From Candidatus Heimdallarchaeum aukensis (GTDB lineage Archaea; Asgardarchaeota; Heimdallarchaeia; Heimdallarchaeales; Heimdallarchaeaceae), in the NCBI GenBank assembly GCA_021513695.1, contig CP084166.1:864001-928000 (forward strand): DNA of 64,000 bases. The letters are read 5' to 3'. The notes below the pieces were generated by a model. The model searched no databases, was not told where the DNA came from, and saw nothing but the letters and a program-made list of their open reading frames with translations. The position numbers and the translations under genes are program-made. Positions 19,537-59,126 of the stretch are shown piece by piece (within the stretch, counting starts at the first letter, position 1; each line of letters begins with the position of its first letter).

Positions 19537-21289
19537 TTAAGCAATTTTTTTTCTTGTTAGTATGACTAAAGTTACTAGTCCAATAATAGTAATAAAAAAT
19601 GGGAGAGAGATTGTTTTTGTAGAAGGGTGCTCACTTGGATCCAATGGATTATAACCTTTTTGAACTTCCTCACCATCCATCCAACCATCTGAATCAGTAT
19701 CTGAATTTAAAGGGTCAGTAAGGTAAATATTAACTTCTTCTCCGTCACTTAGTCCATCTGAATCAGTGTCTGAATTTAAAGGGTCAGTAAGGTAAATATT
19801 AACTTCTTCTCTGTCACTTAGTCCATCTGAATCAGTGTCATTGTTATTTGTTAGAGTTCCTATATATTGTTCATAAGCATTTGATAAACCATCATAGTCT
19901 GAATCAACATCATACAAGTTCTTAGTCCTTATGAACTTAGAAGATCCACTCATTCCTTCCCAATAAACATGTAGAGAACTTGAAGGAAAAGAAAAACAGT
20001 AGATATATTCAGTAGTATCACCTATAATAAGCTCCAAATGACCATCAGAATCAATATCACCAATAGAGGGAGAAGAATAAGCAAAAGGACCAAGAGTATA
20101 ACTCCACAATAAAGATCCATTATTACTCAAACAATATAAATTACTATCATGAGACCCAAAAATAATCTCAAAATATCCGTCTGCGTTAATATCTGCAACA
20201 GAAGGAGAAGAACGAACATTATCTCCTGTTTTGTAAGTCCATTTTATAGAACCATCATTGTTGAAACAGTACACATAATCAGAATCACTCCCCACAATAA
20301 TCTCAAAATAACCATCAGAATCTATATCTACGACAGCAGGAGAATCCCACACTCTATCTTCAGTATTGTATCGCCATTTTAAAGTACCATTATAATTTAA
20401 ACAATAGATGTAACCGTCATGGCTACCAATAATGATTTCTGATCTCCCGTCTGAATTAATATCTGCGATAGCTGGAGAAGAATAAATATCATTAGCAGTA
20501 CCGTATCGCCATTTTAAAGTACCATCATTGTTGAAACAATAAATGTAATTATCATAACTTCCGACAACAATTTCCAAGTCCCCATCAGCATCAATATCAC
20601 CGACTGAAGGTGAAGAAAGAACATTAAGACCAGTACCGTATCGCCATTTTAAAGTACCATCATTGTTTAAACAGTAGATATAATAGTCATCGCTACCAAT
20701 AATGATTTCTAAATTTCCGTCTCCGTCAATATCAAAAACAACTGGAGCAGTACGAACTTTTTCTCCTGCTTTATAAGTCCATTTTACAGTACCATCATTA
20801 TTCAAGCAGTATATGTAATTGTCATCACTTCCTACAACGATCTCCAAATTTCCGTCTTTATCAATATCTACAACTACAGGAGAAGAACGAGTGGATCCAC
20901 CTGTTTTGTAAGTCCATTTTACAGAACCATCATTGTTGAAACAATAGATGTAACTATCCAAACTCCCTTCAATGATCTCTACATTTCCATCGGCATCAAT
21001 ATCAACTATAGCAGGAGAAGAATGGATATCTCCCCCAGTTCTATAACTCCACAATAACTCAGCTTCAATACTCTTAAATGTTGAACCTTTGGGTGTTTCA
21101 AGATTAGTACTTGCATAAGAAAGAGAGTCAGTAGATAAAGAAGTTTCACCATTATAGTTTAAGGAAGTATTAAGTCTTCGATAATCAGTTTCATAATTTG
21201 ATGTTAACAAAGCAGGTGTTAACAAAATAATTAATAAAGCAACCGTGATAGTTAAACTTCTTATTCTTGAAATTTGCATTATTTTTTCT
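19537..21289 (-). CDS. Membrane-anchored secreted beta-propeller protein (9 FG-GAP/PQQ-like blades) with C-terminal TSP3-like Ca-binding repeats
   Basis: Nine repeats of the form DIDxDGxxEIxxGSxDxYIYC[FL]NNDGxxKWxYxTG. These are followed by D-rich DTDSDGLSDxEEVNIYLTDPLNS repeats and a C-terminal TM helix. The probable true start is the signal peptide MQISRIRSLTITVALLIILL (~21289), not the ORF-track start at 21450. Confidence 0.7.
19691..19840. repeat. Near-perfect 69-bp tandem duplication (2.2 copies) inside the beta-propeller gene, encoding the 23-aa DTDSDGLSDxEEVNIYLTDPLNS unit
   Basis: Units at ~19691-19759 and ~19760-19828 differ at 2 positions. A third partial unit follows. Confidence 0.8.
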
Positions 21290-22126
21290 CTAGTTTGAAA
21301 TATTTTTTGATTTTTAGCTTGCTTTTTTTTCATTATTAATTCATTCCTTTTTATTTTATGATTTTTCTGTTGCGATTTACTTGAATATTTAGAAACACTT
21401 CTTCTAAATCGTAATTTAGTAGCTGATTTTGCTCTCTGTCTAAATATCATCCATGAATTATCTTTTTGTTATCTTTTCCTACTCTATCAGTGGAATGGTA
21501 CAAACGATGAAATTTAAAGGTTTCAAAGTACTAACATCATCTAGGAATTATGAGACACTATTGAAGTATTTAACTCTTCGCTCAACGAGCAGCTATAATA
21601 TTCTGATTACTAGTGAATAGGTTGATTTAAGCATCTAGTTAAGGCACTTTTAGGAATGGTTTTTTTACATCTTTTCTCATTTCCAGTACCTCTTTTTGAA
21701 CATAGTTCGTTTCTTTTTTAGAGTAGATCACATAGTTATTACCAGAATCATATATAAACTAGACATTTTTTGAAGGAAGAAAATAACTGCAAAAAAGAAA
21801 CTCAAAGTTACATTCAGCCATTTTTTTAAATAAAATCACATTTCCCCAATATTCTAAAATCATTTTTACAACATTTTCAGGACTATGATACTTCATACAA
21901 TCACTTTAAAAAGATTTGAACTTGAATTTTTACAAAACTTAAAAAAATAGATTCATAACCGAATTTCAAGAGCTTCTGCAAAGATGCACTCTCATTAGCT
22001 ACATTTATTGTAAAGATGAAAGTAACTTAAAAACATTAACTATCATTTCTTTTTATTCCTACTATATGAATAAAACAATCAATTGTTAATAAGTAATATT
22101 TTTATTTTCTATCCTAATTTTAAATT

Positions 22127-24004
22127 GTGAGATATAAAGATCCATTTCTTATTCCAATAATGCAAATTAGTAAAAAAAAGAAATTAAGGAATGAGGAAAA
22201 GATACAATTAATAGAAAATATTTTTCAGAAAATAATAAAATTTACAGGAGAAAATAGAGAAATACGAAAAAAAATAGAAGAAATAAGAAAAATCATTGCT
22301 AAGAGCGGAATAGAAATTAATAAAGAAATCAACAATTTGAACAATTTAAACGATTTAAATAATTTAAATAATTTAAACAAGAAACTCAACTTTAGTTTAG
22401 ATGAAAGAAAATCAAATATTTTTATCACTCCTTATCATCTTTCACTAATCACAAGTATTTGCTCTACAGACCCTAAAAGCAATGGAGAGTTTAACACACC
22501 GTTCTATATAGCAGAATACTTGGCAGAAAGAGCAATAAAATACTATTTAACAGAAAACAAAGCAGAAGAAAAATCAGATAACAAAACAGAACAAAGTAAA
22601 CTACTTAGATTAAAGTTTGCAGATATAGCTAGTGGAACAGGAAACTTGATACTCGCTCTCTTATATAAATTAAAAGAAAGAATAAAAAAGGAAGAAGAGA
22701 TAGAAAATGAAGAATTAATAGAGTTTATCAGTAACAACATTTATTGTTACGATAATAACCAATTAGCACTAAAAATAAATGAGCTTAGACTATTCTTATT
22801 CATCAAATTTACTATGGAAGAAGCAGAATTAAGAAAAGTAAATTTTAAAACAATAAAAACAAATACTTTGGATAAAGAAAAAATAAAGAAAAACAATTAT
22901 TTTGATATTATTTTAATAAATCCACCTTTCAAAACTTATGGATTAAGAAATGGGCAAAAGTATAGCCAAGAATTAAAGAACTATTTAAGAAAAGAATATA
23001 AGACCGCAGAGTATAAACTTCCACTTTATCCACTATTCATGGAAAGAGCAATAGAATTGTTAAGAAAAAGAGGAGTTCTTGGAGTAGTTAGCCCAGATAG
23101 TTTTTTGTTAGGTAAATATTACTCAAAAATAAGAAGTTATATTCTCAACAATACTACAATTAAAGAAATAACACTATTAGACTATGAACCCTTTGAAAAA
23201 GTAACACTAGGAAGAACAGCGCTAAGTTTCTATATGAAAAAAAATGAAAAAGAAAAAAAACAGAATCAAATAATCACGAAAAAAATAAGCAATTACCAAA
23301 CTTTCACTCACAAAAATGAGATTGATAAGAAGTACTTGAACAATGAAAAAAAATTCCTAAAAAATGATCTAAATAGATTTTTTCTGTTCTTTAATGAGAA
23401 AGAAGAAAAGATAGTAGAGAAATGGATTGAAAAAGCAGATTGTAAACTAGAAGATCTGGTAACAATCCACACAGGAATAAGAAGTAAAATAGGCCAAAAA
23501 AAGATCATTAGCTTAAAAAAACATGATGAAAATTGGAAAAAAGGAATATTATCAGGAAAACAAATAAAACCTTTTTATTTAGAATACAAAGGACATTGGA
23601 TAAATGTTGATCCAACTATATTATGGGCAGGAGGTTATAATGAGGAGATAATAGAAAATCCTAAATTGTTAATAAGACAAACAGGAGATAAAATAATTGC
23701 ATGTGTAGATACTAATGGCTATTACCACTTGAATAATATTCACTCACTTTCTCCAAAAGACGAAACAGTTGACCTTTACTCCTTATCAGTTATCTTAAAT
23801 TCAAAAGAATTTAATCAAGTCTATAGAATTTTAAGTATGGAAAAAAAAAGAACATTTGCTCAAATAGACATAGATTTTTTCCTCAAAATGCCGATAATAT
23901 ACTTTTCAAAAGAAAAAAAAACACTTTATGAATTTTATCTAAAAGAAAGCACCAAACAGAAAAAAAGAATAGAAATAGAATCATATTTATTAGATAATAT
24001 TTAA
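22127..24004 (+). CDS. N6-adenine DNA methyltransferase (gamma-class, Eco57I/TaqI-like MTase domain plus C-terminal target-recognition region), apparently orphan
   Basis: Motif I FADIASGTGNLILALLYKL and motif IV DIILINPPF. About 350 aa of C-terminal non-catalytic sequence. No nuclease domain or neighbouring restriction gene was found. The N-terminal ~110 aa are low-complexity (NNLNNLNDLNNLNNLNKK). Confidence 0.7.
   Translation: MRYKDPFLIPIMQISKKKKLRNEEKIQLIENIFQKIIKFTGENREIRKKIEEIRKIIAKSGIEINKEINNLNNLNDLNNLNNLNKKLNFSLDERKSNIFITPYHLSLITSICSTDPKSNGEFNTPFYIAEYLAERAIKYYLTENKAEEKSDNKTEQSKLLRLKFADIASGTGNLILALLYKLKERIKKEEEIENEELIEFISNNIYCYDNNQLALKINELRLFLFIKFTMEEAELRKVNFKTIKTNTLDKEKIKKNNYFDIILINPPFKTYGLRNGQKYSQELKNYLRKEYKTAEYKLPLYPLFMERAIELLRKRGVLGVVSPDSFLLGKYYSKIRSYILNNTTIKEITLLDYEPFEKVTLGRTALSFYMKKNEKEKKQNQIITKKISNYQTFTHKNEIDKKYLNNEKKFLKNDLNRFFLFFNEKEEKIVEKWIEKADCKLEDLVTIHTGIRSKIGQKKIISLKKHDENWKKGILSGKQIKPFYLEYKGHWINVDPTILWAGGYNEEIIENPKLLIRQTGDKIIACVDTNGYYHLNNIHSLSPKDETVDLYSLSVILNSKEFNQVYRILSMEKKRTFAQIDIDFFLKMPIIYFSKEKKTLYEFYLKESTKQKKRIEIESYLLDNI
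22331..22380. repeat. 9-bp tandem repeat (aatttaaac-like, ~5 copies) encoding an (N-L-N)n tract in the MTase N-terminus
   Basis: caatttgaacaatttaaacgatttaaataatttaaataatttaaac, read directly from the sequence. Confidence 0.6.
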
Positions 24005-24327
24005 TAAATAATTGAATTAAATTAAATTATAATAATATTTTAACTTTGAATTTATTAAAACTAAAGCCTATTACTCTTTATAATATCAAGGTTTGGTATA
24101 AAAAACTGAACTTAGTACATTAATATTCTTTTCTTACAGTATTTCAAGAATCAAAAATAATTATTATCACTTTAAAAGAAGTGATATTCAAGTAAGTATA
24201 ATTACCAATAAATATTTCCTAAAAATAAATAAAGAAAAAAAGTAAGAGGAGAAAGTGAAGAAAGTGTTTAAGAACAAAGTCTAGAACTAAATAAGCATGA
24301 ATAGTAAAAAATGATTAAAAGTTAACA

Positions 24328-25395
24328 TTATATTTTTTCGTTGCTAAAATCTTTATTTTTTTTCAAGTATTCTTTAGTTTCGATATTCTTTAACCACCAC
24401 TCATTTTCTAAATACCACTCTATTGTTAGTTGAATACCTTCTTCAAAATCGATTGTTGGAAACCAGTTCAGTTCATTTTTTATCTTTGAAATATCGATCG
24501 CATATCTTCTATCATGCCCTAATCTGTCTTTAACGTGTTTAATTAAAGTTTCATTAATTTTAGTGTCTTTTGTTTTCTCATATAAATAAGAAATTATTTT
24601 TTTTACAACATATATATTCTTTCTCTCATTTTGAGCTCCAATATTATATATCTCACCTATCCTTCCTTTTTCAAAAACCAAGTCGATTGCTCTACAATGA
24701 TCAGTGACAAATATCCAATCTCTTACTTGATTTCCATCTCCATATATAGGTAGATTCTTATGGTTCAATGCATTTTGTATCATTAATGGAATTAATTTTT
24801 CGGGGAATTGGAAGGGTCCGTAGTTATTAGAACATCTAGTAATATTTACTGGCATCCTATATGTATCAAAGTACGCTTTTACTATCAAATCTGCAGATGC
24901 CTTACTTGCAGAATAAGGACTATGCGGATCAAGAGGAGTTTTTTCTGTAAAAGCACCTGTAGGACCTAGAGAACCATATACTTCATCTGTTGATATTTGC
25001 AAGAATTTCTTATTTGCAATCCATTCTTCATTGTGATACCAATTTTTTTTACATATTTCAAGAAGTGAATATGTGCCTAAAATATTTGTTTGAAGAAATA
25101 TTTGTGGATTAGCAATAGATCTATCAACATGGGATTCTGCAGCGAAATTAATAACTCCATCTATATCTTTATAGGTTTCAAATATTTTCCTTAATAACTC
25201 AAAATTATTAATATCTCCTTTAATAAAAATAAACCTTGACTTTTGATCTTCAGTTAAATTTTTCCAATTTTCAACGTTACCAGCATAAGTAAGTTTGTCG
25301 ATACCAATTATTTCTCTATCAGGATATCTATCAAGATAATAATAAAGAAAATTACTTCCAATAAATCCTGCAACGCCAGTTACTAATATTTTCAT
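24328..25395 (-). CDS. rfbB: dTDP-glucose 4,6-dehydratase
   Basis: MKILVTGVAGFIGSNF Rossmann start and YSASKASADLIVKAY (YxxxK) block. The length fits RmlB, and it is the last gene of the rfbA-C-D-B run. Confidence 0.9.
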   Translation of the reverse strand: MKILVTGVAGFIGSNFLYYYLDRYPDREIIGIDKLTYAGNVENWKNLTEDQKSRFIFIKGDINNFELLRKIFETYKDIDGVINFAAESHVDRSIANPQIFLQTNILGTYSLLEICKKNWYHNEEWIANKKFLQISTDEVYGSLGPTGAFTEKTPLDPHSPYSASKASADLIVKAYFDTYRMPVNITRCSNNYGPFQFPEKLIPLMIQNALNHKNLPIYGDGNQVRDWIFVTDHCRAIDLVFEKGRIGEIYNIGAQNERKNIYVVKKIISYLYEKTKDTKINETLIKHVKDRLGHDRRYAIDISKIKNELNWFPTIDFEEGIQLTIEWYLENEWWLKNIETKEYLKKNKDFSNEKI

Positions 25396-25418
25396 TCCTA
25401 ATACTTCCTCTATGTTTT

Positions 25419-26267
25419 TTATTTGATCAATTCAATTTCCTCTAAAAATTTGATAGTAGCATCTTGCCAAGAAGGTAGTTTGTATCCAATTACTTCTTCT
25501 AAACCAAATGGGTCTAAAACTGATAAGAAAGGTCTTTTAGCAGGTGTATTAAACTCATGAGAGAGAGCAGGAAGAAGCTCTCCTTCCCACTCTATTTTAT
25601 TTAATATATATTCAGCCCATTGATATCGTGAACAATATCCAGAATTTGTCATATGATACAACCCATAATTTTCTGTTTTTATCAAGTTGTAAGTTGCATC
25701 TACAATATCGTTTGTATAACTTGGTGATGATATCTGATCAATAACGATTCTTATTTTTTTTCTATTTCTACTCCATTTTATAGTTTTAGTTATAAAGTTT
25801 TCATTACCTTTCCCAAAGACCCAGCTTAACCTTACTAAAAAAAACCTATTAGCGATATTTTGTACATTCTTTTCACCCAGCACTTTACTTTCTCCGTATT
25901 TTGAAATGGGAGATGGTTTATCATAAATTGTATAGGGATAACCTTTACATCCATCAAAAACATAGTCAGTAGAGTAATGGACAAGTATAGCATCTAATTC
26001 ATTCGCAAGTAAAGCTAAGTTTTTTGGACCAAGCCCATTGATTCGATAAGCAGATTGCCAGTCATTTTCAGCATTGTCTACTGCATTATAGGCAGCACAA
26101 TTAATAATTATATCAATATCTTTATTTGAAACATATTCCCGTAATTTTTTAAAATTTGTAATATCTAATTCGACATCAGTAGCAAAAAAACTAATTCCCT
26201 TTTTTAAAAAAAAGGTTTGGAATGATTGACCTAATTGTCCTTTTGATCCTGTAATTAATATTCCCAT
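25419..26267 (-). CDS. rfbD: dTDP-4-dehydrorhamnose reductase
   Basis: MGILITGSKGQLGQSF N-terminus, about 280 aa, sits between rfbC and rfbB. Confidence 0.85.
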   Translation of the reverse strand: MGILITGSKGQLGQSFQTFFLKKGISFFATDVELDITNFKKLREYVSNKDIDIIINCAAYNAVDNAENDWQSAYRINGLGPKNLALLANELDAILVHYSTDYVFDGCKGYPYTIYDKPSPISKYGESKVLGEKNVQNIANRFFLVRLSWVFGKGNENFITKTIKWSRNRKKIRIVIDQISSPSYTNDIVDATYNLIKTENYGLYHMTNSGYCSRYQWAEYILNKIEWEGELLPALSHEFNTPAKRPFLSVLDPFGLEEVIGYKLPSWQDATIKFLEEIELIK

Positions 26268-26414
26268 ATAATCACCATTAAATTTTCATAAATATATCTT
26301 TTATGTGATTCAAATTTGAAATACTATAAAGCAACTCCTACGAACTAATTTCTTAATTAATGCATATATTATTCTCTTTCTTACATACCTTTTTAGCTTA
26401 ACTTCTTAATTAAA

Positions 26415-26996
26415 TCACTTTTCGTATTTAAAAGGTAATTCAATATCTTTCAAAAATGGTAATTTAGAATCTTTCTCTGAAATAATTAATCTTGAATCTT
26501 CAATCTTGTCTAAAGGCCATTTAATGTTTATATCTGGATCATTCCACCTGATTCCTCTATCATATGCTGAATAATAATAATCAGTTGTTTTGTAAACAAA
26601 TTCAGTCTCTTCAAGGGCAAGAAATCCATGAGCAAAACCTTTAGGAATATAAAACATGCGTTTGTTTTTTTCAGAAAGTTCTACACCATAATACTGACCA
26701 AAACTGGGAGAACCTACTCTTATATCAACAGCAACATCAAACACTCTTCCTTTGATTACACGTACTAATTTTCCTTGAGAGTGCTTAGATTGAAAATGTA
26801 ATCCTCGTAGAACTCCTTTTGAAGATTTAGAGTGGTTATCTTGTACAAAATCCACGTTTAATCCAATTTTGTTAAATTCCTTTTTATTATAAGTTTCCAT
26901 AAAAAATCCTCTTTCATCGTAAAAAATTACTGGTTCAATAATAAATGCCCCTTCCAATATTGTTTCAATTTTATTAAATTTTAACATATAAATCAC
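26415..26996 (-). CDS. rfbC: dTDP-4-dehydrorhamnose 3,5-epimerase
   Basis: Cupin with the RGLHFQ block and KLVRVIKGRVFDVAVDIR. 193 aa. Confidence 0.9.
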   Translation of the reverse strand: MIYMLKFNKIETILEGAFIIEPVIFYDERGFFMETYNKKEFNKIGLNVDFVQDNHSKSSKGVLRGLHFQSKHSQGKLVRVIKGRVFDVAVDIRVGSPSFGQYYGVELSEKNKRMFYIPKGFAHGFLALEETEFVYKTTDYYYSAYDRGIRWNDPDINIKWPLDKIEDSRLIISEKDSKLPFLKDIELPFKYEK

Positions 26997-27143
26997 CGTA
27001 AATCTTTACTATAATTTTTGGATTAGTTTATCTCATAATCATGTTTATTTTTTGTCACTGTTGTACTATTGAAATGAAATTAATTTTATTCTATTAAATC
27101 TATTGAATTACATTATACTTTGTAATATGTAGATGAAAAATTT

Positions 27144-28007
27144 TTAAATAAGACTTAATAAATACCTTCCATAATCAGAATTTGAGTGCTCTTTTGCTAA
27201 ATTTTTAAGTTGATCGGTGTCAATATATCCAAGTCTGAATGCAATTTCTTCTAAACAAGCAATATAATATCCTTGCCTTTTTTGAATAGCTGCAACAAAA
27301 TTACTAGCTTCTATTAAACCATCAAATGTTCCAGTATCAAACCAAGCTAATCCACGTCCTAATAATTTGACTTTCAACTTTCCTCTTTTTAAATATTCAA
27401 TATTAAGATCAGTAATTTCTAGCTCTCCTCTTGGAGATGGTTTAAGATTTTCTGCATATTTAATTACATTATTATCGTAGAAATATAAACCAGGTATAGC
27501 ATAATTTGATTTTGGAAAAGCTGGTTTCTCTTCTATGGAGATAACATCCATAGTTTCTTCATTGAATTCTACAACTCCAAAAGCGGTGGGATTATTTACA
27601 TAGTAACCAAAGATTAAGGCTCCTTCCTTTAAAGTAGTTGCTTTTCTTAAAATTGAAGAAAAACCTTGACCATAAAAGATATTATCACCTAAAATTAGTG
27701 CAACATTATCAGAACCAATAAATTCTTTACCAACAATGAAAGCATCAGCTAACCCTCTTGGTTTTTCTTGAATTTTATATGAAAACTGAACACCAAGTTG
27801 AGAACCATCTTTTAATAAATTCTTGTAGTCTATAATATCTCTTGCTGTTGAGATAATTAAAATATCTTTTATCCCAGCAAGAAGAAGTGAAGAAAGTGAG
27901 TAATAAATCATAGGTTTATCATAAACTGGTAGAATTTGTTTTGAAATTGCTTTTGTTATGGGATATAATCTTGTTCCTGTTCCTCCAGCCAATACAATTC
28001 CTTTCAT
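27144..28007 (-). CDS. rfbA: Glucose-1-phosphate thymidylyltransferase
   Basis: [36 protein letters not shown] is the canonical RmlA N-terminus. Confidence 0.9.
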
Positions 28008-39479: not shown

Positions 39480-40309
39480 CTCCACGTTGATGTTTTAAAT
39501 TTATAAATGATATTAAAAAACTCTTATGGTGCACTTCCAAGGTGTTACAAATACAGACATAGATTGTACTTGAAATAATAGAGAATAAGACGCTTATGAT
39601 GATGGAAGAGAAGACGGTCACGCAACGAGATGAATACAAGTTTGATGAAAACAAAAATGTTTTCTACGGCAGATTTACAGGACACACAGAAGTGTTTTTA
39701 TTTACACAACCAGTGATAAGACTGTTAAAGACGTATTGAACGGTCTTGGAGATAACCTGTCTCATGGGTGGATTCGTGAAAGAAACGATAAAAATGAGTT
39801 AGCAAAAAAATACAAACATATTGATCCAAGATTTCTTTTTGTAAAAAAAAGATATAATTTAAGACCAACTGAAATACAAGGAGCATTTGGAATTCAACAA
39901 CTCAAGAAACTTGAAATATTCTTACGAACTAGAGAAGAAAATGCAAAATTTTGGATAGATAATTTGAACAAATATAGAAGCCTTATTCACATTCCAAAGA
40001 CTGAAACAAATATAAGACATGCATGGTTTGGATTTCCAATAGTTATTTATGAAAAAGCTGGATTTAAACATGATGATTTCATTAAAATATCTTGAAAACA
40101 ATAATATTGAAACTCGTCCAATTATGGCAGGAGATATAATTGAACACCCCGCTATGCACTATTATAACTGGAAACAAGTAAGAACACTAGAAAACTCTTC
40201 AAAGATAATAAAAAATGTTTTCTTCGTTGGAAATCATAGTAGCATTAAACAAAAAGAAAGAGAATACATTATGGATGTAATGAAATCATTTTTGGAAAAA
40301 AACACCTAA
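39480..40309 (+). pseudogene. Degraded C-terminal half of a DegT-family enzyme, paralog of 49730-50998
   Basis: TSDKTVKDVLNGLGDNLSHGWIRERNDKNELAKKY...RYNLRPTEIQGAFGIQQLKKLEIF...NNIETRPIMAGDIIEHPAMHYYNWKQ aligns to the intact copy (HGWIRERKDRSILAKKY...GYNLRPTELQGAFGIHQIKKLDDF...NNIETRPIMSGNITEHPALKYFKWRK). It is split over two frames. The upstream part is a GC-elevated, stop-rich remnant. Confidence 0.7.
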
Positions 40310-40344
40310 CTTTTTTTTAAATATTCATTAAAATCTTTTCTTTT

Positions 40345-41349
40345 AAAGCATGTCCAAAAATTAATTTTTATTAATGTGGGGGTTTATGTCGGAAGTATGA
40401 GTTTCTTTCAGATCATAGACCCCCACAAAGCAAGAGAATTCATAATCATTAATGAACCTTTCCTTAAGAAACTGGTGAAAGAGGAACCGAGAGAAAGTAA
40501 GAGAGGGAGAAAAAGAATAGCAGAAAGGTGGGTGATACTGGCTTTAGCGATCATTGCGAGAATAGAAGGAATTGCTTGGAGGAAGTTAGAGGAAAAGTTG
40601 TCTTTATGCGATTTTTTGATAGAAGAGGGGTGGATGAAGAAGATTCCTTCCAAATCTACTTTTCATGCAGTGTGGAGAGCGACAGAAAGTAAGTTGCTGG
40701 AGCGGTGGATAATAGATTTAGGTAGGGAAATAGTAAGGAAAAAAGGGTTGAAAGCTATGTCGGTGGATAGTTCAGGTTTTAAAATTCGTCAAGCTTCTGT
40801 TTGGCGTTTTCTCAAGTGGGCAAGAGGAGGACTAAAGAAAACCTCCAAACTTTTCTGGAAGATACACCTTATAGTTGGTTTACCCTCTCGAGCTATAGTC
40901 TCTCTTGCTCATTCTGCTAGTAACACTCACGATAGTAAAGTCTTCGGTTTACTATGGCAGAAACTTCCTTCTGCACTCTTGAGACCTTTCTTGAGATTCT
41001 ATGGAGACTGCGCTTACTGGACAGAAAATATCGTGGGACTTCTTAGCCAACATTCCTTTTTTCCTGTTATTCCTCCAAAAAGTAATGCTCGTTATCCCTC
41101 TCCTCCTCCTCTTGGACCAATAGTTCAAGCTCATCGTCTCTACCCTGGTCTCTATCGTCATAATCACCACCCCGAGTATCGTAGTAGTATTGAACATGTC
41201 TTTGGTCTCCTCAAACTCTCTCTTCCCCCGATTCTTGATCGCTTACCCTCCACCATCCTCTCTACCTTGTACAGTTCTCTTCTCTGTTACAACTACCTTT
41301 TACTCCTTCGGACTGTATAGTTGGTGAAAAAGAATTTTTGGACATGCTT
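40345..41349 (+). mobile_element. IS4/IS5-superfamily insertion sequence, copy 1 (about 1005 bp, 18-bp perfect terminal inverted repeats AAAGCATGTCCAAAAATT)
   Basis: Identical to the copy at 47464-48469 over its whole length except for one A insertion in copy 2. The inverted repeats were read at both ends. Flanks suggest a 3-bp duplication (TTT here, AAT at copy 2), but AT-rich flanks make that weak. Confidence 0.85.
40376..41320 (+). CDS. DDE transposase of the IS4/IS5 superfamily
   Basis: C-terminal YRSSIEHVFGLLK fits the R-x3-E-x6-K (YREK) signature of IS4/IS5 transposases. The ORF fills the element. Confidence 0.8.
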   Translation: MGVYVGSMSFFQIIDPHKAREFIIINEPFLKKLVKEEPRESKRGRKRIAERWVILALAIIARIEGIAWRKLEEKLSLCDFLIEEGWMKKIPSKSTFHAVWRATESKLLERWIIDLGREIVRKKGLKAMSVDSSGFKIRQASVWRFLKWARGGLKKTSKLFWKIHLIVGLPSRAIVSLAHSASNTHDSKVFGLLWQKLPSALLRPFLRFYGDCAYWTENIVGLLSQHSFFPVIPPKSNARYPSPPPLGPIVQAHRLYPGLYRHNHHPEYRSSIEHVFGLLKLSLPPILDRLPSTILSTLYSSLLCYNYLLLLRTV

Positions 41350-41397
41350 TTTTAATAGAACATTAAATATTTATATCTATATATTATGTAACTATCA

Positions 41398-42543
41398 ATG
41401 AAAATAGCTATAATTAATCAATTTACCACACCAGAAGCTGGAGGGCACGAAATAAATTTAGCCAAACTATTACATAAAAAAGGACATGAACCTGTAATAA
41501 TAACTTCTGAATATAAGAATCCTAACCTAACCAATTATAAACTTATTAAGGCAGATGTGAAGAAGGATAAAGAACTCTGTTCTTTTAAAATTATAAGACT
41601 AAAAACTATATTTGCCTATTCAGAATTCCCAATTGTGACAGGAATGGATAAAATAATAGCTGAACTTAAACCAGACATTATTAATATTCATGAATTTTTT
41701 CAATACACTAGCTATAAAGGATACAAGTTAGCGAAAAAAAACAAAATACCTATTGTATTAACTCAACACTGTTATTACTTTCCACCCAGTTTTTTGAATA
41801 GATTAGGTATGAAAATTACAACTAAACTTTGGGGAAAAAAAATAATCAAGAATAGTGATGGACTTATAGCTATAGCTGAAAGCTCTAGTAAATTTCTAAA
41901 GGAAGTATCAAAAAATCCAAGATTGAAAGTAAACATAATACCAACGCCATTAGAATTGGATCAATTTCTTGAAATTATACCAGATTTTACTAAAAAATCA
42001 GAAAGTGATATTTTTAGAATATTATATGTTGGAAGAGTAGATGAGAGAAAAGGGATAAAATATTTGTTAGATGCTATGTCAATAGTAACAAAAAGATTCT
42101 ATAAACAAAAAATTGTTTTAGATATTGTTGGAAGAGGAGCAGATTTAAAGAAGTTTAAAAGATATGCAAGAGACAGAAATATTTGTGCAAAATTTCATGG
42201 ATTTGTTGAACATCAAAACATTTCAAAATTTTATAAAAAAGCTAATGTTTTTGTTTTACCCACAATTACAAAAGAACCATTCGGCAACGTAGCAGTTGAA
42301 GCTTTAGCGTCTGGGATCCCAGTTATTGCAAGCAAATTAGGAGGACTAGTAAATATTGTTCAAGAAGGTGCAGGATTTTTAGTTCAACCAAAAAATGCAG
42401 AAGAAATAGCTAATGCAATTACAAAGTTTTTAGATAATCCACTCTTATTAAAAAATTACAGTAAGAATGCAAAAGATCTTGGGTTCAGATTTGCAAATGA
42501 GCCTATAAATTCAATTATAGAGTTATTTCAGAATCTTATTTAA
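41398..42543 (+). CDS. GT4 glycosyltransferase
   Basis: EPFGNVAVEALASGIPVIASKLGG EX7E motif. N-terminal MKIAIINQFTTPEAGGHEINLAKLLHKKGHEPVII matches the GT4 N-domain. Confidence 0.85.
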   Translation: MKIAIINQFTTPEAGGHEINLAKLLHKKGHEPVIITSEYKNPNLTNYKLIKADVKKDKELCSFKIIRLKTIFAYSEFPIVTGMDKIIAELKPDIINIHEFFQYTSYKGYKLAKKNKIPIVLTQHCYYFPPSFLNRLGMKITTKLWGKKIIKNSDGLIAIAESSSKFLKEVSKNPRLKVNIIPTPLELDQFLEIIPDFTKKSESDIFRILYVGRVDERKGIKYLLDAMSIVTKRFYKQKIVLDIVGRGADLKKFKRYARDRNICAKFHGFVEHQNISKFYKKANVFVLPTITKEPFGNVAVEALASGIPVIASKLGGLVNIVQEGAGFLVQPKNAEEIANAITKFLDNPLLLKNYSKNAKDLGFRFANEPINSIIELFQNLI

Positions 42544-42585
42544 ACATGTTTCTGAACTAAATATTGTTTAAGTAATCACAAAGAG

Positions 42586-43030
42586 ATGGATATAAAAATG
42601 GACATTAATAAATTCAAAAATCAAAACATCTTGATAATTAGTGAAAATGGTTTTATTGGTTCTCACCTTTTTCTAAAGCTTAGACATTTATCTAAAAATA
42701 TTATTAGAACAGTTTATTCACATAATTCAGAGAAAAATCAATTGTACAAATTTTACTATATCCATGTATTATTTGTTCAGCTGATGATTTAGAAGATGAA
42801 TATGCAATTGATGGGATTTAATAGATGTGTTTCATCTATAGGTAAATATTTAGTTTTTCCATAAACCAGACCAGATGATGAAAATACAAATTTTGAATCC
42901 TCTTGATATTTTCTAATGTTTTCCATTATATTTAAAGTTCCAAAAGTATTGACTTGATAACAAAGCTCTGGCTTTTTTATTGATTCATAAACATCAATTA
43001 AACTTGCTAGGTAATATATGATATTGAAAT
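42586..43030. pseudogene. Disrupted NAD-dependent sugar epimerase/dehydratase: N-terminal fragment on + strand (42586-42792) and the following mid-gene segment inverted on - strand (~43030 to 42790)
   Basis: The + strand encodes NILIISENGFIGSHLFLKL (Rossmann GxxGxxG start). The - strand encodes YLASLIDVYESIKKPELCYQVNTFGTLNIMENIRKYQEDSKFVFSSSGLVYGKTKYLPIDETH, which is the segment that normally follows in the same orientation. The C-terminal part is absent. Confidence 0.55.
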
Positions 43031-43245
43031 TTTAAAATTATTACAATAATATCCTACAAACGATTTGGTTATACTATTAAGATATATAAGTGAAGTAGAT
43101 AAAATAAATAAAAACTACCTCACTTTTAAATCTTTATAAGTTTAGTTCTTTATAAATTTTGGTTAATCTTACTACATTTTTCTCATTATAATACTTTTTT
43201 TTATTATTTTTTTATTTATCATGAGACATTCATGAAATGTAGAGA

Positions 43246-43317
43246 CTAGGTCTAACCTACTGTAACTCAGATCTCTTTTTTTCTTCCTCTCTTATTACAA
43301 TTTTCCCCCTTCACTAG
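43246..43317. repeat. Left half of repeated intergenic element copy B; the right half resumes at 44081
   Basis: ctaggtctaacctactgtaactcagatctc...cctctcttattacaatttt matches 28341-28395. Confidence 0.45.
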
Positions 43318-44080
43318 GGTAGTGTCTAGTTTTTATACCACCTCCTAGGTAAAAAGGAACTAAGGGGAGGATGTCCCAAGCTCTGATGAGGACGAACGAA
43401 ATTATAATGGAGCATAAAGAGAGTAAGAAAACCAGAAAGATGAGTAGAGCCATAGACGGCACGGATAGGACAAGTGCAGTGGAGAATAGAATGAAACCAA
43501 CGATAACTCTTAAGAGTAGCATTAAAACGTTCAATATAGGAGCGTAAACCACCTTTGATAACGGAGATTTTGATACCTAGACGAAGTAAGACAGGATACC
43601 ATACCCCTGCATCTGTAACGACAATACGGGGCTTAAAACCCCAACATTTGAGCCAATAACGGAAAGTTAGTAAACATTCAAGATTACTCCGTCCTTTAGT
43701 AATACTAAAACCCAGTAAAGTCTTGTTGTAAGGATCTAACGCGAACCACAGATATATTGAGCCTTGAGAGGTCCTAATCTCTGTTTCATCTACTACTATA
43801 ATCTCTGGTATTCCCCCTCTCTCTGCTACAACTCTATGTAAACTTTCCCTAAAGAGCCTGAACTTCTTTACCCAATACCATAATGTTTGATGCGTTAAAC
43901 CATTCTTCCATGCTACTGTCCTCAACCCATTCTTTGAACCAATATATTCATAAATCGCTTTTATTATTATTTTTTTGGGGACTCTGCATCTCTTAAAAAG
44001 AGCAGATAGTTTTTGTGTTTTCATATCTTACTATTAGAGTCCCCACAAATATTTTTGTCGGAAGAAAACTAGACACTACC
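43318..44080 (-). mobile_element. IS6-family-like insertion sequence (about 763 bp, 16-bp perfect terminal inverted repeats GGTAGTGTCTAGTTTT, 9-bp direct target duplication CTTCACTAG)
   Basis: The inverted repeats start with GG as in the IS6 family. The CTTCACTAG duplication sits at 43309-43317 and 44081-44089. The single ORF spans almost the whole element. Confidence 0.75.
43326..44024 (-). CDS. DDE transposase, IS6-family-like
   Basis: 232 aa. VVDETEI, VVTDAGVWY and IERFNATLKSYRW blocks resemble the D, D and E/K regions of IS6/IS26-type transposases. There is an N-terminal HTH-like region. Confidence 0.7.
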   Translation of the reverse strand: MKTQKLSALFKRCRVPKKIIIKAIYEYIGSKNGLRTVAWKNGLTHQTLWYWVKKFRLFRESLHRVVAERGGIPEIIVVDETEIRTSQGSIYLWFALDPYNKTLLGFSITKGRSNLECLLTFRYWLKCWGFKPRIVVTDAGVWYPVLLRLGIKISVIKGGLRSYIERFNATLKSYRWFHSILHCTCPIRAVYGSTHLSGFLTLFMLHYNFVRPHQSLGHPPLSSFLPRRWYKN

Positions 44081-47463: not shown

Positions 47464-48469
47464 AAAGCATGTCCAAAAATTAATTTTTATTAATGTGGGG
47501 GTTTATGTCGGAAGTATGAGTTTCTTTCAGATCATAGACCCCCACAAAGCAAGAGAATTCATAATCATTAATGAACCTTTCCTTAAGAAACTGGTGAAAG
47601 AGGAACCGAGAGAAAGTAAGAGAGGGAGAAAAAGAATAGCAGAAAGGTGGGTGATACTGGCTTTAGCGATCATTGCGAGAATAGAAGGAATTGCTTGGAG
47701 GAAGTTAGAGGAAAAGTTGTCTTTATGCGATTTTTTGATAGAAGAGGGGTGGATGAAGAAGATTCCTTCCAAATCTACTTTTCATGCAGTGTGGAGAGCG
47801 ACAGAAAGTAAGTTGCTGGAGCGGTGGATAATAGATTTAGGTAGGGAAAATAGTAAGGAAAAAAGGGTTGAAAGCTATGTCGGTGGATAGTTCAGGTTTT
47901 AAAATTCGTCAAGCTTCTGTTTGGCGTTTTCTCAAGTGGGCAAGAGGAGGACTAAAGAAAACCTCCAAACTTTTCTGGAAGATACACCTTATAGTTGGTT
48001 TACCCTCTCGAGCTATAGTCTCTCTTGCTCATTCTGCTAGTAACACTCACGATAGTAAAGTCTTCGGTTTACTATGGCAGAAACTTCCTTCTGCACTCTT
48101 GAGACCTTTCTTGAGATTCTATGGAGACTGCGCTTACTGGACAGAAAATATCGTGGGACTTCTTAGCCAACATTCCTTTTTTCCTGTTATTCCTCCAAAA
48201 AGTAATGCTCGTTATCCCTCTCCTCCTCCTCTTGGACCAATAGTTCAAGCTCATCGTCTCTACCCTGGTCTCTATCGTCATAATCACCACCCCGAGTATC
48301 GTAGTAGTATTGAACATGTCTTTGGTCTCCTCAAACTCTCTCTTCCCCCGATTCTTGATCGCTTACCCTCCACCATCCTCTCTACCTTGTACAGTTCTCT
48401 TCTCTGTTACAACTACCTTTTACTCCTTCGGACTGTATAGTTGGTGAAAAAGAATTTTTGGACATGCTT
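47464..48469 (+). mobile_element. IS4/IS5-superfamily insertion sequence, copy 2 (identical to copy 1 apart from a single extra A)
   Basis: Same inverted repeats and internal sequence as 40345-41349. gggaaaatag here versus gggaaatag in copy 1 (~47836). Confidence 0.85.
47495..48440 (+). pseudogene. IS4/IS5 transposase gene, frameshifted (split into 47495-47890 and 47868-48440)
   Basis: A 1-nt insertion in an A-run breaks the reading frame relative to copy 1. This could be a genuine inactivating mutation or a homopolymer sequencing error. Confidence 0.75.
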
Positions 48470-49729: not shown

Positions 49730-50998
49730 ATGAAGTTAGAAACAGCATTGAATGAAATTAAGAATATTGTAGATATGTATTTCTCTGAAAATGATATTTA
49801 TAAAGATGAAACGAAGATAAGGCTTATTGCTCCTTCATATGGAACTAAAGAAGTGATAGAAGTAATAGAATCACTTCTTTCCACTAATGTAACAATGGGT
49901 AAAAAAGTTAGTGAATTTGAAAATATGTTTTCAACATACTTAAATGTGAAATATGGTACTATGGTAAATTCTGGTTCAAGTGCAAATTTAATAGCTCTTC
50001 AAATTTTATCAAATCCTGCTATTAGAAATAATATTAAACCTAAAGACGAAATTATTACTCCAGCTTTAACTTGGTCTACTACTGTTTTTCCAATGTTTGA
50101 TATTCATGCAGTTCCTGTATTTGTTGATGTGGATCCTAAAACTTTGACTATTGATGTTAACCAACTAAAAAGCGCTTTATCTAAGAAAACTAAGGCAATA
50201 ATGCCAGTTCATCTTTTAGGTCATCCATGTGATATGGACTACATAACAGAATTTGCTGAAGATAATTCATTGTACATAATTGAAGATTGTTGTGAAGCTC
50301 ATGGAGCAATGTGGAAAGGTAAGAAAGTTGGTAGTTTTGGTGATATCGGTACTTTTAGTTTCTTTTTTTCTCATCATATATCTACGATAGAGGGTGGGAT
50401 TGTTGTTACTAATAACGAAGAATATAATCTTTTATCAAAATCTTTGAGGGCCCATGGTTGGATTCGAGAGAGAAAAGATAGGTCGATTTTAGCTAAAAAA
50501 TATCCTTTTATCAGTGAAAAATATCTTTTTATAAATAAAGGATATAATTTAAGACCTACAGAACTTCAAGGCGCATTTGGAATACATCAAATTAAGAAAT
50601 TAGATGATTTCATTAAAATTAGAGAAGAAAATGCAAAATATTGGTTATCTGAACTTGATGAAATAAAGCATCTTATACAGTTACCAACCATTAAGAAAGA
50701 TGTTAAGCATTCATGGTTTGGTTTTCCCTTAATAGTTAAAGATGAAGCTCCATTTAAAAAAGATGACTTAATTCAATATCTTGAATTAAATAACATTGAA
50801 ACTCGTCCAATTATGTCAGGTAACATTACAGAACATCCAGCTTTAAAATATTTCAAATGGCGTAAGATCGGTAATTTGGAAGTATCCTCGAAAGTTATGA
50901 AGAATGGCTTTTTCTTTGGTAATCATCTAGGTATTAAAAACTACGAAAGAGAATTTATTGCGGAGAAAATTAGAGAGTTCATAGATTATAAAACTTAG
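49730..50998 (+). CDS. DegT/DnrJ/EryC1-family PLP enzyme with His replacing the Schiff-base Lys: ColD-like NDP-4-keto-6-deoxyhexose 3-dehydratase rather than a classical aminotransferase
   Basis: The block GSFGDIGTFSFFFSHHISTIEGGIVVTN aligns to the family consensus ...SFhgnKiittgEGG... with H at the K position, read by eye. The remaining blocks (HGWIRER, NIETRPIM) are standard DegT. Confidence 0.65.
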   Translation: MKLETALNEIKNIVDMYFSENDIYKDETKIRLIAPSYGTKEVIEVIESLLSTNVTMGKKVSEFENMFSTYLNVKYGTMVNSGSSANLIALQILSNPAIRNNIKPKDEIITPALTWSTTVFPMFDIHAVPVFVDVDPKTLTIDVNQLKSALSKKTKAIMPVHLLGHPCDMDYITEFAEDNSLYIIEDCCEAHGAMWKGKKVGSFGDIGTFSFFFSHHISTIEGGIVVTNNEEYNLLSKSLRAHGWIRERKDRSILAKKYPFISEKYLFINKGYNLRPTELQGAFGIHQIKKLDDFIKIREENAKYWLSELDEIKHLIQLPTIKKDVKHSWFGFPLIVKDEAPFKKDDLIQYLELNNIETRPIMSGNITEHPALKYFKWRKIGNLEVSSKVMKNGFFFGNHLGIKNYEREFIAEKIREFIDYKT

Positions 50999-51081: not shown

Positions 51082-51903
51082 TTATCTTTCTATAATTATT
51101 ATGTATCTTTTTCTTGTTCCTGCTTTGATTTCTATATAACCACACTCTTTTTTTTCACAAAACAACCTACGTAATTTCTCCAATTGGTTTTTGTTCATTA
51201 ATTGTAAAGTAATCAAATTAATTCTAACGTCATTATTATTCATTGCTTCATTCAGCAATTTAATAGCAAAATCTAACTCTCTCTCTCCAGCAATAAGTTC
51301 AGATTGTACTCCTTTCCACCCCCTTTGTTTTTCAAGTTTCGTCAAATCTGCAGGATAGATGGGTGGGTAACACATTAAAGCTGTGTATTTTCCTTCAGGT
51401 ACAATTTCTTTTATTATTTGCCCTTCTGATTTAATCAAAGTTATTAAGCTGCTTAATTTATTTTTCACTATATTTCTTTGTGCTAGTTGATAAGATATTT
51501 CATTTATTTCTGTAGCTAAAACTTTTCTCTTGTATTTTTTAGCGAGTAGCATTGCTATTGCTGCACTGGCTCCTGTCCCAATCTCGATTATAGGGTAGGA
51601 AAAGTTTGCAATTTTACTTGTGAGCAGTTCATTTATTGCTTCGACGTAAGCCATTCTTAGACTATAAGAAGGAATTAAGTGCCCTTTTGGTAGTTCAATA
51701 TCTAAATCTGCTAATTCTTTAAACAAGCACTTATTAAGTTCTGATAGAGTTTCAGGATCACCCAAATCAAATTTAGGAGGATTTTTGCTTATTAAGTATT
51801 TCTCCAATTTAGGGTATTTAGCAACTAATTTTTCGAATTTCATCCCTAAATGCTTAGCTTCTATAATTTTTAGTGGTTCTTTAATCATGCTTAGTCCTAT
51901 CAT
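51082..51903 (-). CDS. Class I SAM-dependent methyltransferase, RlmF/METTL16-like (N6-adenine RNA MTase type)
   Basis: SAM motif IIEIGTGASAAIAMLLAKK and an NPPF-like MCYPPIYPAD motif. Confidence 0.5.
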   Translation of the reverse strand: MIGLSMIKEPLKIIEAKHLGMKFEKLVAKYPKLEKYLISKNPPKFDLGDPETLSELNKCLFKELADLDIELPKGHLIPSYSLRMAYVEAINELLTSKIANFSYPIIEIGTGASAAIAMLLAKKYKRKVLATEINEISYQLAQRNIVKNKLSSLITLIKSEGQIIKEIVPEGKYTALMCYPPIYPADLTKLEKQRGWKGVQSELIAGERELDFAIKLLNEAMNNNDVRINLITLQLMNKNQLEKLRRLFCEKKECGYIEIKAGTRKRYIIIIER

Positions 51904-57665: not shown

Positions 57666-59126
57666 ATGGAGGGCGTCGTTAAAACCTTGAAAGTGAGAAT
57701 AAAGAATGAGGTGTTGACGACTAGAAAAAAGCTAAGGTTAAGGAGAATAACGGGGAGAGACACAAGGATTATAGAAAAGTATGTGAGAATAATACACCAT
57801 AACAGAAGAAAGATATGTATACGAACCAAAAAAGGGAAAATAAGAGTACATAGAGGAAAATTAGATGAGTTGACGCTTACTACTTCAAAAGTTAAAGAAG
57901 AAGAGATGAGAACGACTGTTCCTCACGACCTTAAGAAAATGTTTCCTTACTGTTCTCACAATGAGTTTCAAGAGTGTAGAGATATAGCTGTGCAACTGTA
58001 CGAGCAAGGATATCGACCCAGTTCTAAACGTCCTCTCATAAAGAGAGTAAGAAGGCAACTAATTAATGGAAAAAGATTCATCCTTGTTCATCTACCAAAA
58101 GAAAAGAATAACACTCTTACTCGTTGGTGGGTGGGAATAAGAGACTCGTTAGACACGTGGAAAAGAAATACCCCCTACCATCAGAAGTTGTGGTTACCTT
58201 TAGAGATAAGCACTTTTCATCAGAAAGAGTTGAAAAAAGGACAAGTGAAAAGCCTAGAATTAAGATATAAGCATTCTACACGTGAGTGGTGGGTGTATTT
58301 TCAACTAAAAGTTCTCCCTCCTTCTTCTTTTCTAAGCGATAATTCCTCTTCTTCTTCTCTTCCTCCAGCTGTGCTGGGAATAGATCTGGGGATAAACATT
58401 CCAGGTGCAGGAGTGCTTCTAGCCCCTAAAAAGAAGTTAACTATTAAAGAGATAAAATTCTGGTATACCAAACAGTGGAATAAATTTAATCATAGATATA
58501 AACTTAAACTTTCCCGTCTTCAGAGGAAAGCGGCTTTAAATGACCAGTCGGGTAAAAAACACCAAATTTATCGTTTTCTTGGATATCTTCGAAGAAGATA
58601 TAGAAACGTTAAACGAGCCTATATTCACCAATTTGTAAGCGATATTGTGCGGACAATAGAGAGTTATGCGCAAGTGTATGATCTTTTTGTCGTCGTAGGT
58701 TACCCCAAAAATGTTAGAAAAGGAAAAGGAAAAGAAAAAGGGAAAAGTAAAAGTACTCGTTATTTTCGCAGAAAACTTCATCAGTGGAACTATGCTCATG
58801 TTCTTGGTCTTCTCCGTCGAGCATTGATATTAAGAGGTTTTGCTCCTCACCGCATTCTTATAATAGACGAAAGAGGAACATCTTCTCATTGTTCACGTTG
58901 TGGAAAAGAAGTTTCTCGTCCCGTCAGAGGGTTAGTCTCTTGTCCCTCTTGTAACTATACCTTCCACTCTGATTTAACAGGAGCTAGAAATATTGCTCTT
59001 AAGTTCCTTAGTCATCTTTTTCGTCCCCGTGTTACAACTATTACTGATTACTTTACTGGTCAAAAATTCAGTCTTACCCATTACACTGTTTGCCGAGGGC
59101 TCAGCCATTGGTTGCAGTCCCAGTAG
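57666..59126 (+). CDS. tnpB: TnpB (OrfB_IS605) RuvC-like RNA-guided endonuclease
   Basis: RuvC-I GIDLGINIPGAG, RuvC-II IIDERGTS, the zinc finger CSRCGKEV...CPSCNY and RuvC-III HSDLTGARNIAL near the C-terminus. The N-terminal half matches the OrfB_IS605 wedge/REC-like region. Confidence 0.85.
   Translation: MEGVVKTLKVRIKNEVLTTRKKLRLRRITGRDTRIIEKYVRIIHHNRRKICIRTKKGKIRVHRGKLDELTLTTSKVKEEEMRTTVPHDLKKMFPYCSHNEFQECRDIAVQLYEQGYRPSSKRPLIKRVRRQLINGKRFILVHLPKEKNNTLTRWWVGIRDSLDTWKRNTPYHQKLWLPLEISTFHQKELKKGQVKSLELRYKHSTREWWVYFQLKVLPPSSFLSDNSSSSSLPPAVLGIDLGINIPGAGVLLAPKKKLTIKEIKFWYTKQWNKFNHRYKLKLSRLQRKAALNDQSGKKHQIYRFLGYLRRRYRNVKRAYIHQFVSDIVRTIESYAQVYDLFVVVGYPKNVRKGKGKEKGKSKSTRYFRRKLHQWNYAHVLGLLRRALILRGFAPHRILIIDERGTSSHCSRCGKEVSRPVRGLVSCPSCNYTFHSDLTGARNIALKFLSHLFRPRVTTITDYFTGQKFSLTHYTVCRGLSHWLQSQ

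Follow-up and report, generated by a model that had tools for sequence, protein, structure and literature searches.

A predicted solitary adenine DNA methyltransferase of Heimdallarchaeia in a conserved glycan and sulfation setting

The window analysed here is a 64,000-nucleotide (nt) stretch of Candidatus Heimdallarchaeum aukensis (contig CP084166.1, positions 864,001 to 928,000 of the forward strand), and the element in question is its one gene for an adenine methyltransferase of the Eco57I/TaqI_C type. From its sequence and modelled fold, the product is assigned to the gamma-class N6-adenine methyltransferases with a C-terminal recognition domain, and its activity is predicted to depend on S-adenosylmethionine (SAM). 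We consider it likely that the gene encodes a functional, solitary DNA adenine-N6 methyltransferase with a conserved target, that is, a persistent orphan, because the family descends vertically, evolves under purifying selection and conserves its recognition domain better than any other part. Such a family would constitute a persistent, lineage-specific group of methyltransferases in Heimdallarchaeia.

As we picture its action, the catalytic domain, with motifs X, I and IV (NPPF), would bind SAM and a flipped-out adenine, and the C-terminal TaqI_C domain would read a short DNA sequence. The enzyme probably acts as a monomer, like CamA, M.BseCI and M.TaqI. With no cleavage partner, it would mark the chromosome and not shield it from a cognate nuclease, and the mark would probably serve a house-keeping or regulatory purpose. 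Among archaeal DNA methyltransferases, orphan adenine enzymes are the most common type, and to our knowledge the epigenetics of Heimdallarchaeia is essentially unstudied. The genome paper (PMC8813620) makes no mention of the methyltransferase gene or its locus, and our literature search found no paper connecting Heimdallarchaeum with a methyltransferase.

Domain order and predicted fold

The motifs and domains of the protein are listed with their coordinates in Table 1. Across 19 family members, motif X is invariant at G120, T124 and P125, motif I at D166, G170, G172 and N173, and motif IV at N265, P266 and P267, with either F or Y at position 268; the FSLDE...ITPYHLS segment holds six further invariant residues (E93, T101, P102, H104, L105 and S106). 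The succession of motif X, motif I, motif IV and a C-terminal recognition domain is the gamma-class arrangement. The TaqI_C domain sits C-terminal to the catalytic domain and aligns with the C-terminal domain of M.TaqI as well. An earlier note on this DNA, made by reading the letters without database searches, had proposed a solitary gamma-class N6-adenine methyltransferase, and motifs X, I and NPPF together with the Eco57I and TaqI_C Pfam matches bear this out. The same note had given some 350 C-terminal amino acids (aa) to target recognition. A recognition domain is present there, but it takes up only ~185–225 aa (roughly from aa 400/440 to 600–625); the remainder is catalytic, the ~130 aa directly after NPPF still belonging to that domain.

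Table 1. Coordinates of the methyltransferase gene, its parts, neighbouring features and related loci. Positions refer to the window unless another locus is named; aa, amino acids; ORF, open reading frame; TRF, Tandem Repeats Finder; AF2, AlphaFold2.
Feature	Position	Strand	Residues	Basis or remark
Adenine DNA methyltransferase gene, complete	22127..24004	+	625 aa	GTG start; ORF list
N-terminal helical region, family-specific	22127..22387	+	aa 1–87	AF2 helices only; no Pfam match; poorly conserved
Imperfect 9-bp tandem repeat, unit AACAATTTA	22331..22380	+		TRF: 5.6 copies, 87% matches, score 72
FSLDE...ITPYHLS segment, conserved	22388..22444	+	aa 88–106	Similarity to the wider Eco57I/TaqI_C superfamily starts here
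Motif X, GEFNTPFYIAEYL	22484..22522	+	aa 120–132	Sequence reading; precedes motif I (gamma-class placement)
Motif I, SAM-binding loop DIASGTGNL	22622..22648	+	aa 166–174	Sequence reading
Eco57I methyltransferase core, PF07669	22733..23179	+	aa 203–351	Pfam: 76 bits (cut-off 25.3), E 4.8e-21
Motif IV, catalytic NPPF	22919..22930	+	aa 265–268	Sequence reading; aligns with NPPY of M.TaqI
TaqI_C target-recognition domain, PF12950	23546..23896	+	aa 474–590	Pfam: 53.3 bits (cut-off 26.5), E 4.1e-14
FG-GAP/beta-propeller surface protein, upstream of the methyltransferase	19537..21450	-		Pfam
rmlB-D-C-A, downstream of the methyltransferase	24328..28007	-		RmlB, RmlD, RmlC, RmlA
DDE transposase	40376..41320			
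rve integrase-like ORF	43326..44024			
TnpB/Cas12f-like ORF	57666..59126			
Two Eco57I/TaqI_C genes, uncultured archaeon	L025 6010-7968, 9779-11686			1.8 kb apart
Compact defence-type operon with nearest long relative, Patescibacteria	L034 601-7077			JAQVFY010000003

An AF2 model built on the family alignment reached a predicted local distance difference test score (pLDDT) of 82 and a predicted template modelling score of 0.83. Its best match in the PDB by Foldseek is DNA-bound CamA (PDB 7LT5, 7LNI; E 2e-25; template modelling score 0.62–0.71 over ~560–600 columns), followed by M.BseCI, BrxX and M.TaqI, with CamA, M.BseCI and M.TaqI all at probability 1.00. A PDB sequence search gave M.TaqI and M.BseCI as the best solved-structure matches (E 2.5e-8 and 1.5e-6, respectively).

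CamA of C. difficile is an orphan methyltransferase conserved within one lineage (PMC8187626). It resembles the window protein over nearly its full length, in size (~580 against 625 aa), in placing a C-terminal DNA-recognition domain after a gamma-class catalytic domain, and in lacking a nuclease partner. The two share only 17–20% sequence identity, however, so the target motif cannot be inferred from solved homologs, and the CamA target CAAAAA is not transferable to the window protein. CamA is also bacterial and species-specific, whereas the present family occurs in many Heimdallarchaeota species and possesses a helical N terminus of 90 aa peculiar to it, and the role of CamA in sporulation is without counterpart here. 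M.TaqI (target TCGA) and M.BseCI (ATCGAT), both Type II gamma-class enzymes that produce N6-methyladenine (m6A), share the NPPY/F motif, the TaqI_C domain and the fold; they are paired with cognate restriction endonucleases, whereas the window enzyme is solitary, and M.TaqI is 200 aa shorter, without the N-terminal region.

The window protein is 100% identical to P0001, entered as 'hypothetical protein K9W45_03625, Candidatus Heimdallarchaeum aukensis'. Its GTG start is favoured over the first ATG (22160) because the peptide that precedes this ATG, VRYKDPFLIPI, is kept in orthologs, and because the ortholog in H. endolithica has Thr at the equivalent codon. At 25.7% GC, where the window averages 28.4%, the gene is no outlier, and a foreign origin by base composition was rejected.

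Family descent and selection

The methyltransferase belongs to a family, present in at least 23 Heimdallarchaeota species, that is sharply delimited, specific to Heimdallarchaeia, vertically inherited and under purifying selection. A word-indexed search returned ~24 homologs at 38–86% identity, and all of those with a source name were labelled Heimdallarchaeota. Full-length members have ~600–650 aa; after them come two 1010-aa proteins and then only weak matches. The same boundary appears in an exhaustive profile search, in which family representatives scored 680–848 bits and all other proteins at most 440 bits, with 937 clusters below E 1e-30. Proteins outside the family match its profile only from position ~95–100, so the first ~90 aa are family-specific. 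Scanning one genome per species, we located the gene in 23 loci (22 distinct) of Heimdallarchaeota genomes, together with one 27%-identical match in Lentisphaeria.

With the H. endolithica ortholog (84% identical in aa) as reference, the ratio of nonsynonymous to synonymous substitution rates (dN/dS) is 0.16 for the whole gene; aa 1–110 have 0.20, the catalytic part 0.23 and the recognition part 0.07. The recognition domain also leads in mean pairwise identity across the family, at 58%; the catalytic part has 47% and the N-terminal region 19%. From this conservation we would expect the same motif to be methylated, probably, across the group, a prediction of one shared m6A motif. Divergence of the methyltransferase follows that of the adjacent CysQ and PAPS (3′-phosphoadenosine-5′-phosphosulfate) synthase, and members cluster by genomic context in a rough neighbour-joining tree. 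The solitary form is found across the family, in orthologs of 40–50% identity that are all ~600 aa long. A fast-diversifying restriction-modification enzyme or recent hotspot cargo would show the opposite pattern, and the suggestion that the gene is variable defence or anti-defence cargo of a glycan-locus hotspot is contradicted by the vertical inheritance of the family, its low dN/dS and its co-divergence with neighbours.

Persistent orphan methyltransferases are established in archaea, where they modify CTAG (N4-methylcytosine, Halobacteria) and CATTC (m6A, Natrialbales) (PMC10609329). The Heimdallarchaeia family is like these in its clade-wide conservation, its vertical inheritance and its want of a nuclease partner. 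It differs in belonging to another protein family and another phylum, Asgard archaea being barely covered in that survey, and a fixed glycan/sulfation location is not described for the Halobacteria and Natrialbales enzymes.

Several points weigh against a persistent orphan with one conserved target. We infer the DNA substrate, the m6A product, the conserved target motif and the regulatory or house-keeping role. H. endolithica (CP084167) has two paralogs ~24 kb apart in one glycan island (L010 10001-11833 and L011 10001-11854), 84% and 47% identical to the window gene, with a Methyltransf_10 gene coming after the second; a duplicate at 47% identity could point to specificities that have diversified and not to one conserved target. 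Locus L025, from an uncultured archaeon, likewise has two family-like genes in tandem. The 23 loci are a count of carriers and not a share of all Heimdallarchaeia genomes. Type II restriction endonucleases change rapidly and are often missed by profiles. A generic house-keeping DNA methyltransferase, finally, does not predict the near-universal embedding among glycan and sulfation genes that is set out below.

Only one family gene is found in the window by tblastn. The slot that is syntenic with the second H. endolithica paralog, from DegT (49730..50998) to Methyltransf_10 (51082..51903), measures just 84 nt, so the 47%-identical paralog is absent from H. aukensis at that slot. The gene at its far end (- strand) encodes a 273-aa Methyltransf_10 homolog (62% identity) of the RlmF/METTL16-like N6-adenine RNA methyltransferase family.

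Glycan and sulfation setting

Although the type of enzyme is ordinary, its conserved location is not explained by that type. When the contexts of seven homologs were annotated with Pfam, glycan-synthesis or sulfation genes surrounded the methyltransferase in all seven. The ORFs of the 23 species-representative loci were then labelled by similarity to these seven contexts, and all loci with readable flanks place the gene among glycan or sulfation genes, L025 being a partial exception. A 166-aa ORF and a gene for a family 2 glycosyltransferase (GT2) lie between the L025 pair, leucine-rich-repeat (LRR) and DUF285 surface-protein genes adjoin it, with an isoleucyl/valyl-type tRNA synthetase gene close by, a context unlike that of all other loci.

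The most frequent arrangement, in 15 loci (L003 and L005, counted in addition to the species-representative set, and L013, L014, L016-L019, L021, L023, L026 and L029-L032), is a same-strand series in which the methyltransferase gene is followed by 0–2 arylsulfotransferase genes, CysQ and a gene for ATP sulfurylase/APS (adenosine-5′-phosphosulfate) kinase, spanning 2–9 kb downstream. CysQ is a phosphatase of PAP (3′-phosphoadenosine-5′-phosphate), the ATP sulfurylase/APS kinase is bifunctional, that is, a PAPS synthase, and a TauE-type exporter gene often comes next. The arylsulfotransferases are ~1050 aa long; L017 has an unlabelled 366-aa gene in their place. The gap 3′ of the methyltransferase gene in these loci is mostly 12–56 nt (range 12–280 nt), and the series looks like an operon for PAPS supply and sulfation that is headed by a DNA methyltransferase. 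In three lineages (L001/L011, L008 and L027) the next gene is instead Methyltransf_10, 1–45 nt downstream. The commonest upstream neighbour is a divergent gene for a zinc-ribbon protein resembling transcription factor B (TFB), seen in 8 of the 23 loci.

Within the genus Heimdallarchaeum the gene is part of a glycan island that exceeds 50 kb, and its neighbours (sulfotransferases, rml) differ from those of other lineages. In the window, the genes within ~8 kb upstream encode a sulfotransferase, a family 4 glycosyltransferase and the surface protein, and those downstream encode RmlB/D/C/A, another sulfotransferase and a GT2; elsewhere the window holds glycan genes and a few insertion elements. 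The position that the earlier note had read, inside a glycan locus between a surface-protein gene and the rml genes, is thus confirmed. Across the loci, the glycan/sulfation pattern is partly plain inherited synteny, the block of CysQ, PAPS synthase and TauE being itself conserved. Beyond synteny, the methyltransferase gene stays in a glycan/sulfation setting while the surrounding genes reshuffle.

This setting is the substance of the best-placed alternative, which we nevertheless regard as unlikely: that the enzyme is coupled to the sulfated-glycan pathway, either as an epigenetic regulator of variable surface-glycan and sulfation genes or, rated less likely than the regulator, as an exapted enzyme that takes a non-DNA amino group, or an adenine nucleotide (PAP or PAPS, for example), into its NPPF pocket as substrate. 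The short gaps and shared strand of the 15-locus series fit such a coupling, but the CysQ–PAPS–TauE–unk480 block is syntenic and the adjacency may be inherited order; the association also survives reshuffling, extending to Heimdallarchaeum with its sulfotransferases and rml genes, but in the window the gene forms its own transcription unit, with one neighbour divergent and the other convergent. The TFB-like zinc-ribbon gene upstream speaks for the coupling, and the fold and recognition domain, which are as in DNA-bound enzymes, speak against it; we know of no precedent for an Eco57I/TaqI_C protein that acts on anything but DNA. A fixed glycan/sulfation position, in many loci as the first gene of a PAPS-synthesis operon, could indicate epigenetic control of the cell surface. 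If that were true, the archaea most closely related to eukaryotes would have the expression of their surface-glycan and sulfation genes controlled epigenetically by an orphan m6A methyltransferase, one found throughout Heimdallarchaeia that remains within the glycan island even where the operon is broken up.

Nuclease partners, repeats and other features of the window

A nuclease domain was sought in the protein with Pfam, NCBIfam, PADLOC, the PDB sequence search, the AF2 model and Foldseek, and none was found. Residues 1–160 of the model are helical throughout, and since they consist of helices only, without a beta-sheet core, they contain no nuclease fold. PADLOC matches to Type IIG and PglX are confined to the methyltransferase core, as are the NCBIfam matches to PglX (60 bits against a cut-off of 500) and MAD2 (47 against 720 bits). 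The flanking gaps (21451-22126 and 24005-24327) contain no ORF longer than 55 aa. With Pfam run on 31 window ORFs, including all ORFs of at least 100 aa from 3152 to 36790, every gene within ~8 kb received a glycan or surface-protein function. Clustering of the unlabelled neighbours over the 23 related loci yielded no recurring gene family and no candidate nuclease, and partner genes of BREX, DISARM or MADS were absent from the window.

The profile scans, the AF2 model and the Pfam annotation of the neighbours therefore agree with the earlier reading that the protein has neither a nuclease domain nor a nuclease neighbour, and the two findings that had been named as contrary to it, a nuclease domain or a missed restriction-enzyme gene nearby, were both looked for and not encountered. 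The absence of a nuclease is never fully proven because nucleases can escape profiles, yet each neighbour here has another clear function.

It seems to us highly improbable that the gene supplies the modification activity of a Type II or Type IIG/IIL restriction-modification system, be it a working one whose nuclease went undetected or one recently reduced to a remnant. Sequence is a poor guide to restriction nucleases (PMC10609329), but all neighbours in the window are glycan-related and no unlabelled neighbour recurs in the 23 loci. The partial PADLOC and NCBIfam matches to Type IIG, PglX and MAD2 modules are core-only and far under the cut-offs, and the modelled protein has no nuclease fold. 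The nearest non-family relatives that we examined are 1010 aa long, one of them paired with a PLD-nuclease/SNF2 helicase, but the solitary form has a long history, and its recognition domain is conserved above all other parts, where restriction-modification enzymes typically diversify.

Named systems were rejected individually. For a classical Type II restriction-modification pair, no adjoining endonuclease gene was found, although novel nucleases can escape detection. A fused Type IIG/IIL enzyme typically has 900–1300 aa, and the window protein has only 625 aa and no nuclease domain. For BREX PglX, MADS MAD2 and DISARM DrmMI, scores were far under the cut-offs and partner genes were not found in the window. 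Type IIG/IIL enzymes (Eco57I, MmeI), PglX, DrmMI and MAD2 do share with the window protein an Eco57I-type core and a TaqI_C-type recognition domain; they differ from it in their N-terminal nuclease and helical parts of 400–600 aa, which it lacks.

That long architecture is present in P0025 and P0026, the closest non-family proteins examined, which are 38–42% identical over the C-terminal 56–59% and, as 1010-aa proteins, have ~430 extra N-terminal residues. P0026 (1012 aa in its locus) belongs to the defence-type operon of Table 1, where its gene starts 4 nt after a 1144-aa PLD-nuclease/SNF2-helicase gene and is followed by a DUF3644 gene; by tblastn, the PLD-SNF2 partner has no homolog in the window or the fetched loci. 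The window gene may plausibly descend, at a remote date, from a defence methyltransferase. Of the remnant of a Type IIG/IIL system that had been suggested for the window gene, only this distant defence origin survives: a recent remnant is not supported because the solitary ~600-aa form is conserved family-wide, and 'remnant' is a misleading label for a form so old and conserved.

The 9-bp repeat in the 5′ part of the gene encodes, in frame, an (NLN)n tract at aa 69–85. Its units run AACAATTTG, AACAATTTA, AACGATTTA, AATAATTTA, AATAATTTA, with never more than two identical units in tandem, and in the TRF output it is the sole short-period array of score 72 in the 64-kb window. Among close relatives (83–86% identity), the H. 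endolithica ortholog (L010) has the same length at the repeat but NLK units, P0002 is two repeat units shorter and P0003 is one residue longer. The tract lies in a low-confidence helical stretch of the model (pLDDT 53–67). It is a length-variable, in-frame, low-complexity linker in the family-specific helical region and not a switch: because the unit equals three codons, changes in length keep the frame and the repeat cannot turn the gene on and off by frameshifting. Mod-type phasevarions differ in this respect, as their repeat does turn the gene on or off.

We give hardly any credence to a phase-variable methyltransferase, a phasevarion-like switch worked by the 9-bp repeat or by poly-A tracts. 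Copy number does vary among close relatives, but the units are imperfect and leave the reading frame intact, and the 90% identity cluster consists of a single sequence with no variants on record. The gene holds seven A-runs of 8–9 nt (22172..23921), a density of 3.7/kb against 0.83/kb in the window, or 4.5-fold; these runs are short, mostly without positional conservation in the ortholog, and probably reflect Lys-rich coding in a gene of 26% GC. Two A9 tracts near the 3′ end, at 23841 and 23913, are the sole frameshift-capable tracts in the gene. The repeat that the earlier note took to be possibly slippage-prone is real and length-variable among relatives; the phase switching proposed for it is not upheld.

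Other features of the window touch the methyltransferase only as neighbours. Rfam and tRNA scans gave no matches. The surface protein encoded at 19537..21450 has 135/270-bp tandem repeats (FG-GAP/beta-propeller blades) and a C-terminal transmembrane anchor, along with a 69-bp repeat encoding TSP3-type calcium-binding motifs; the repeats lie at 19685..19839 and 20156..21022. Mobile elements of higher GC content (0.38–0.42) are inserted in the glycan island at 39736..44024 and 57666..59126. Beside the DDE element, a 119-aa DegT fragment (39736..40095) that is 80% identical to the H. endolithica DegT resembles a gene remnant. The highest GC of the window (0.41–0.43) is found at 47495..48440, where two small ORFs of 131 and 190 aa overlap, the 190-aa ORF being 72% identical to an ORF of the H. 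endolithica island (L010 16426-17007).

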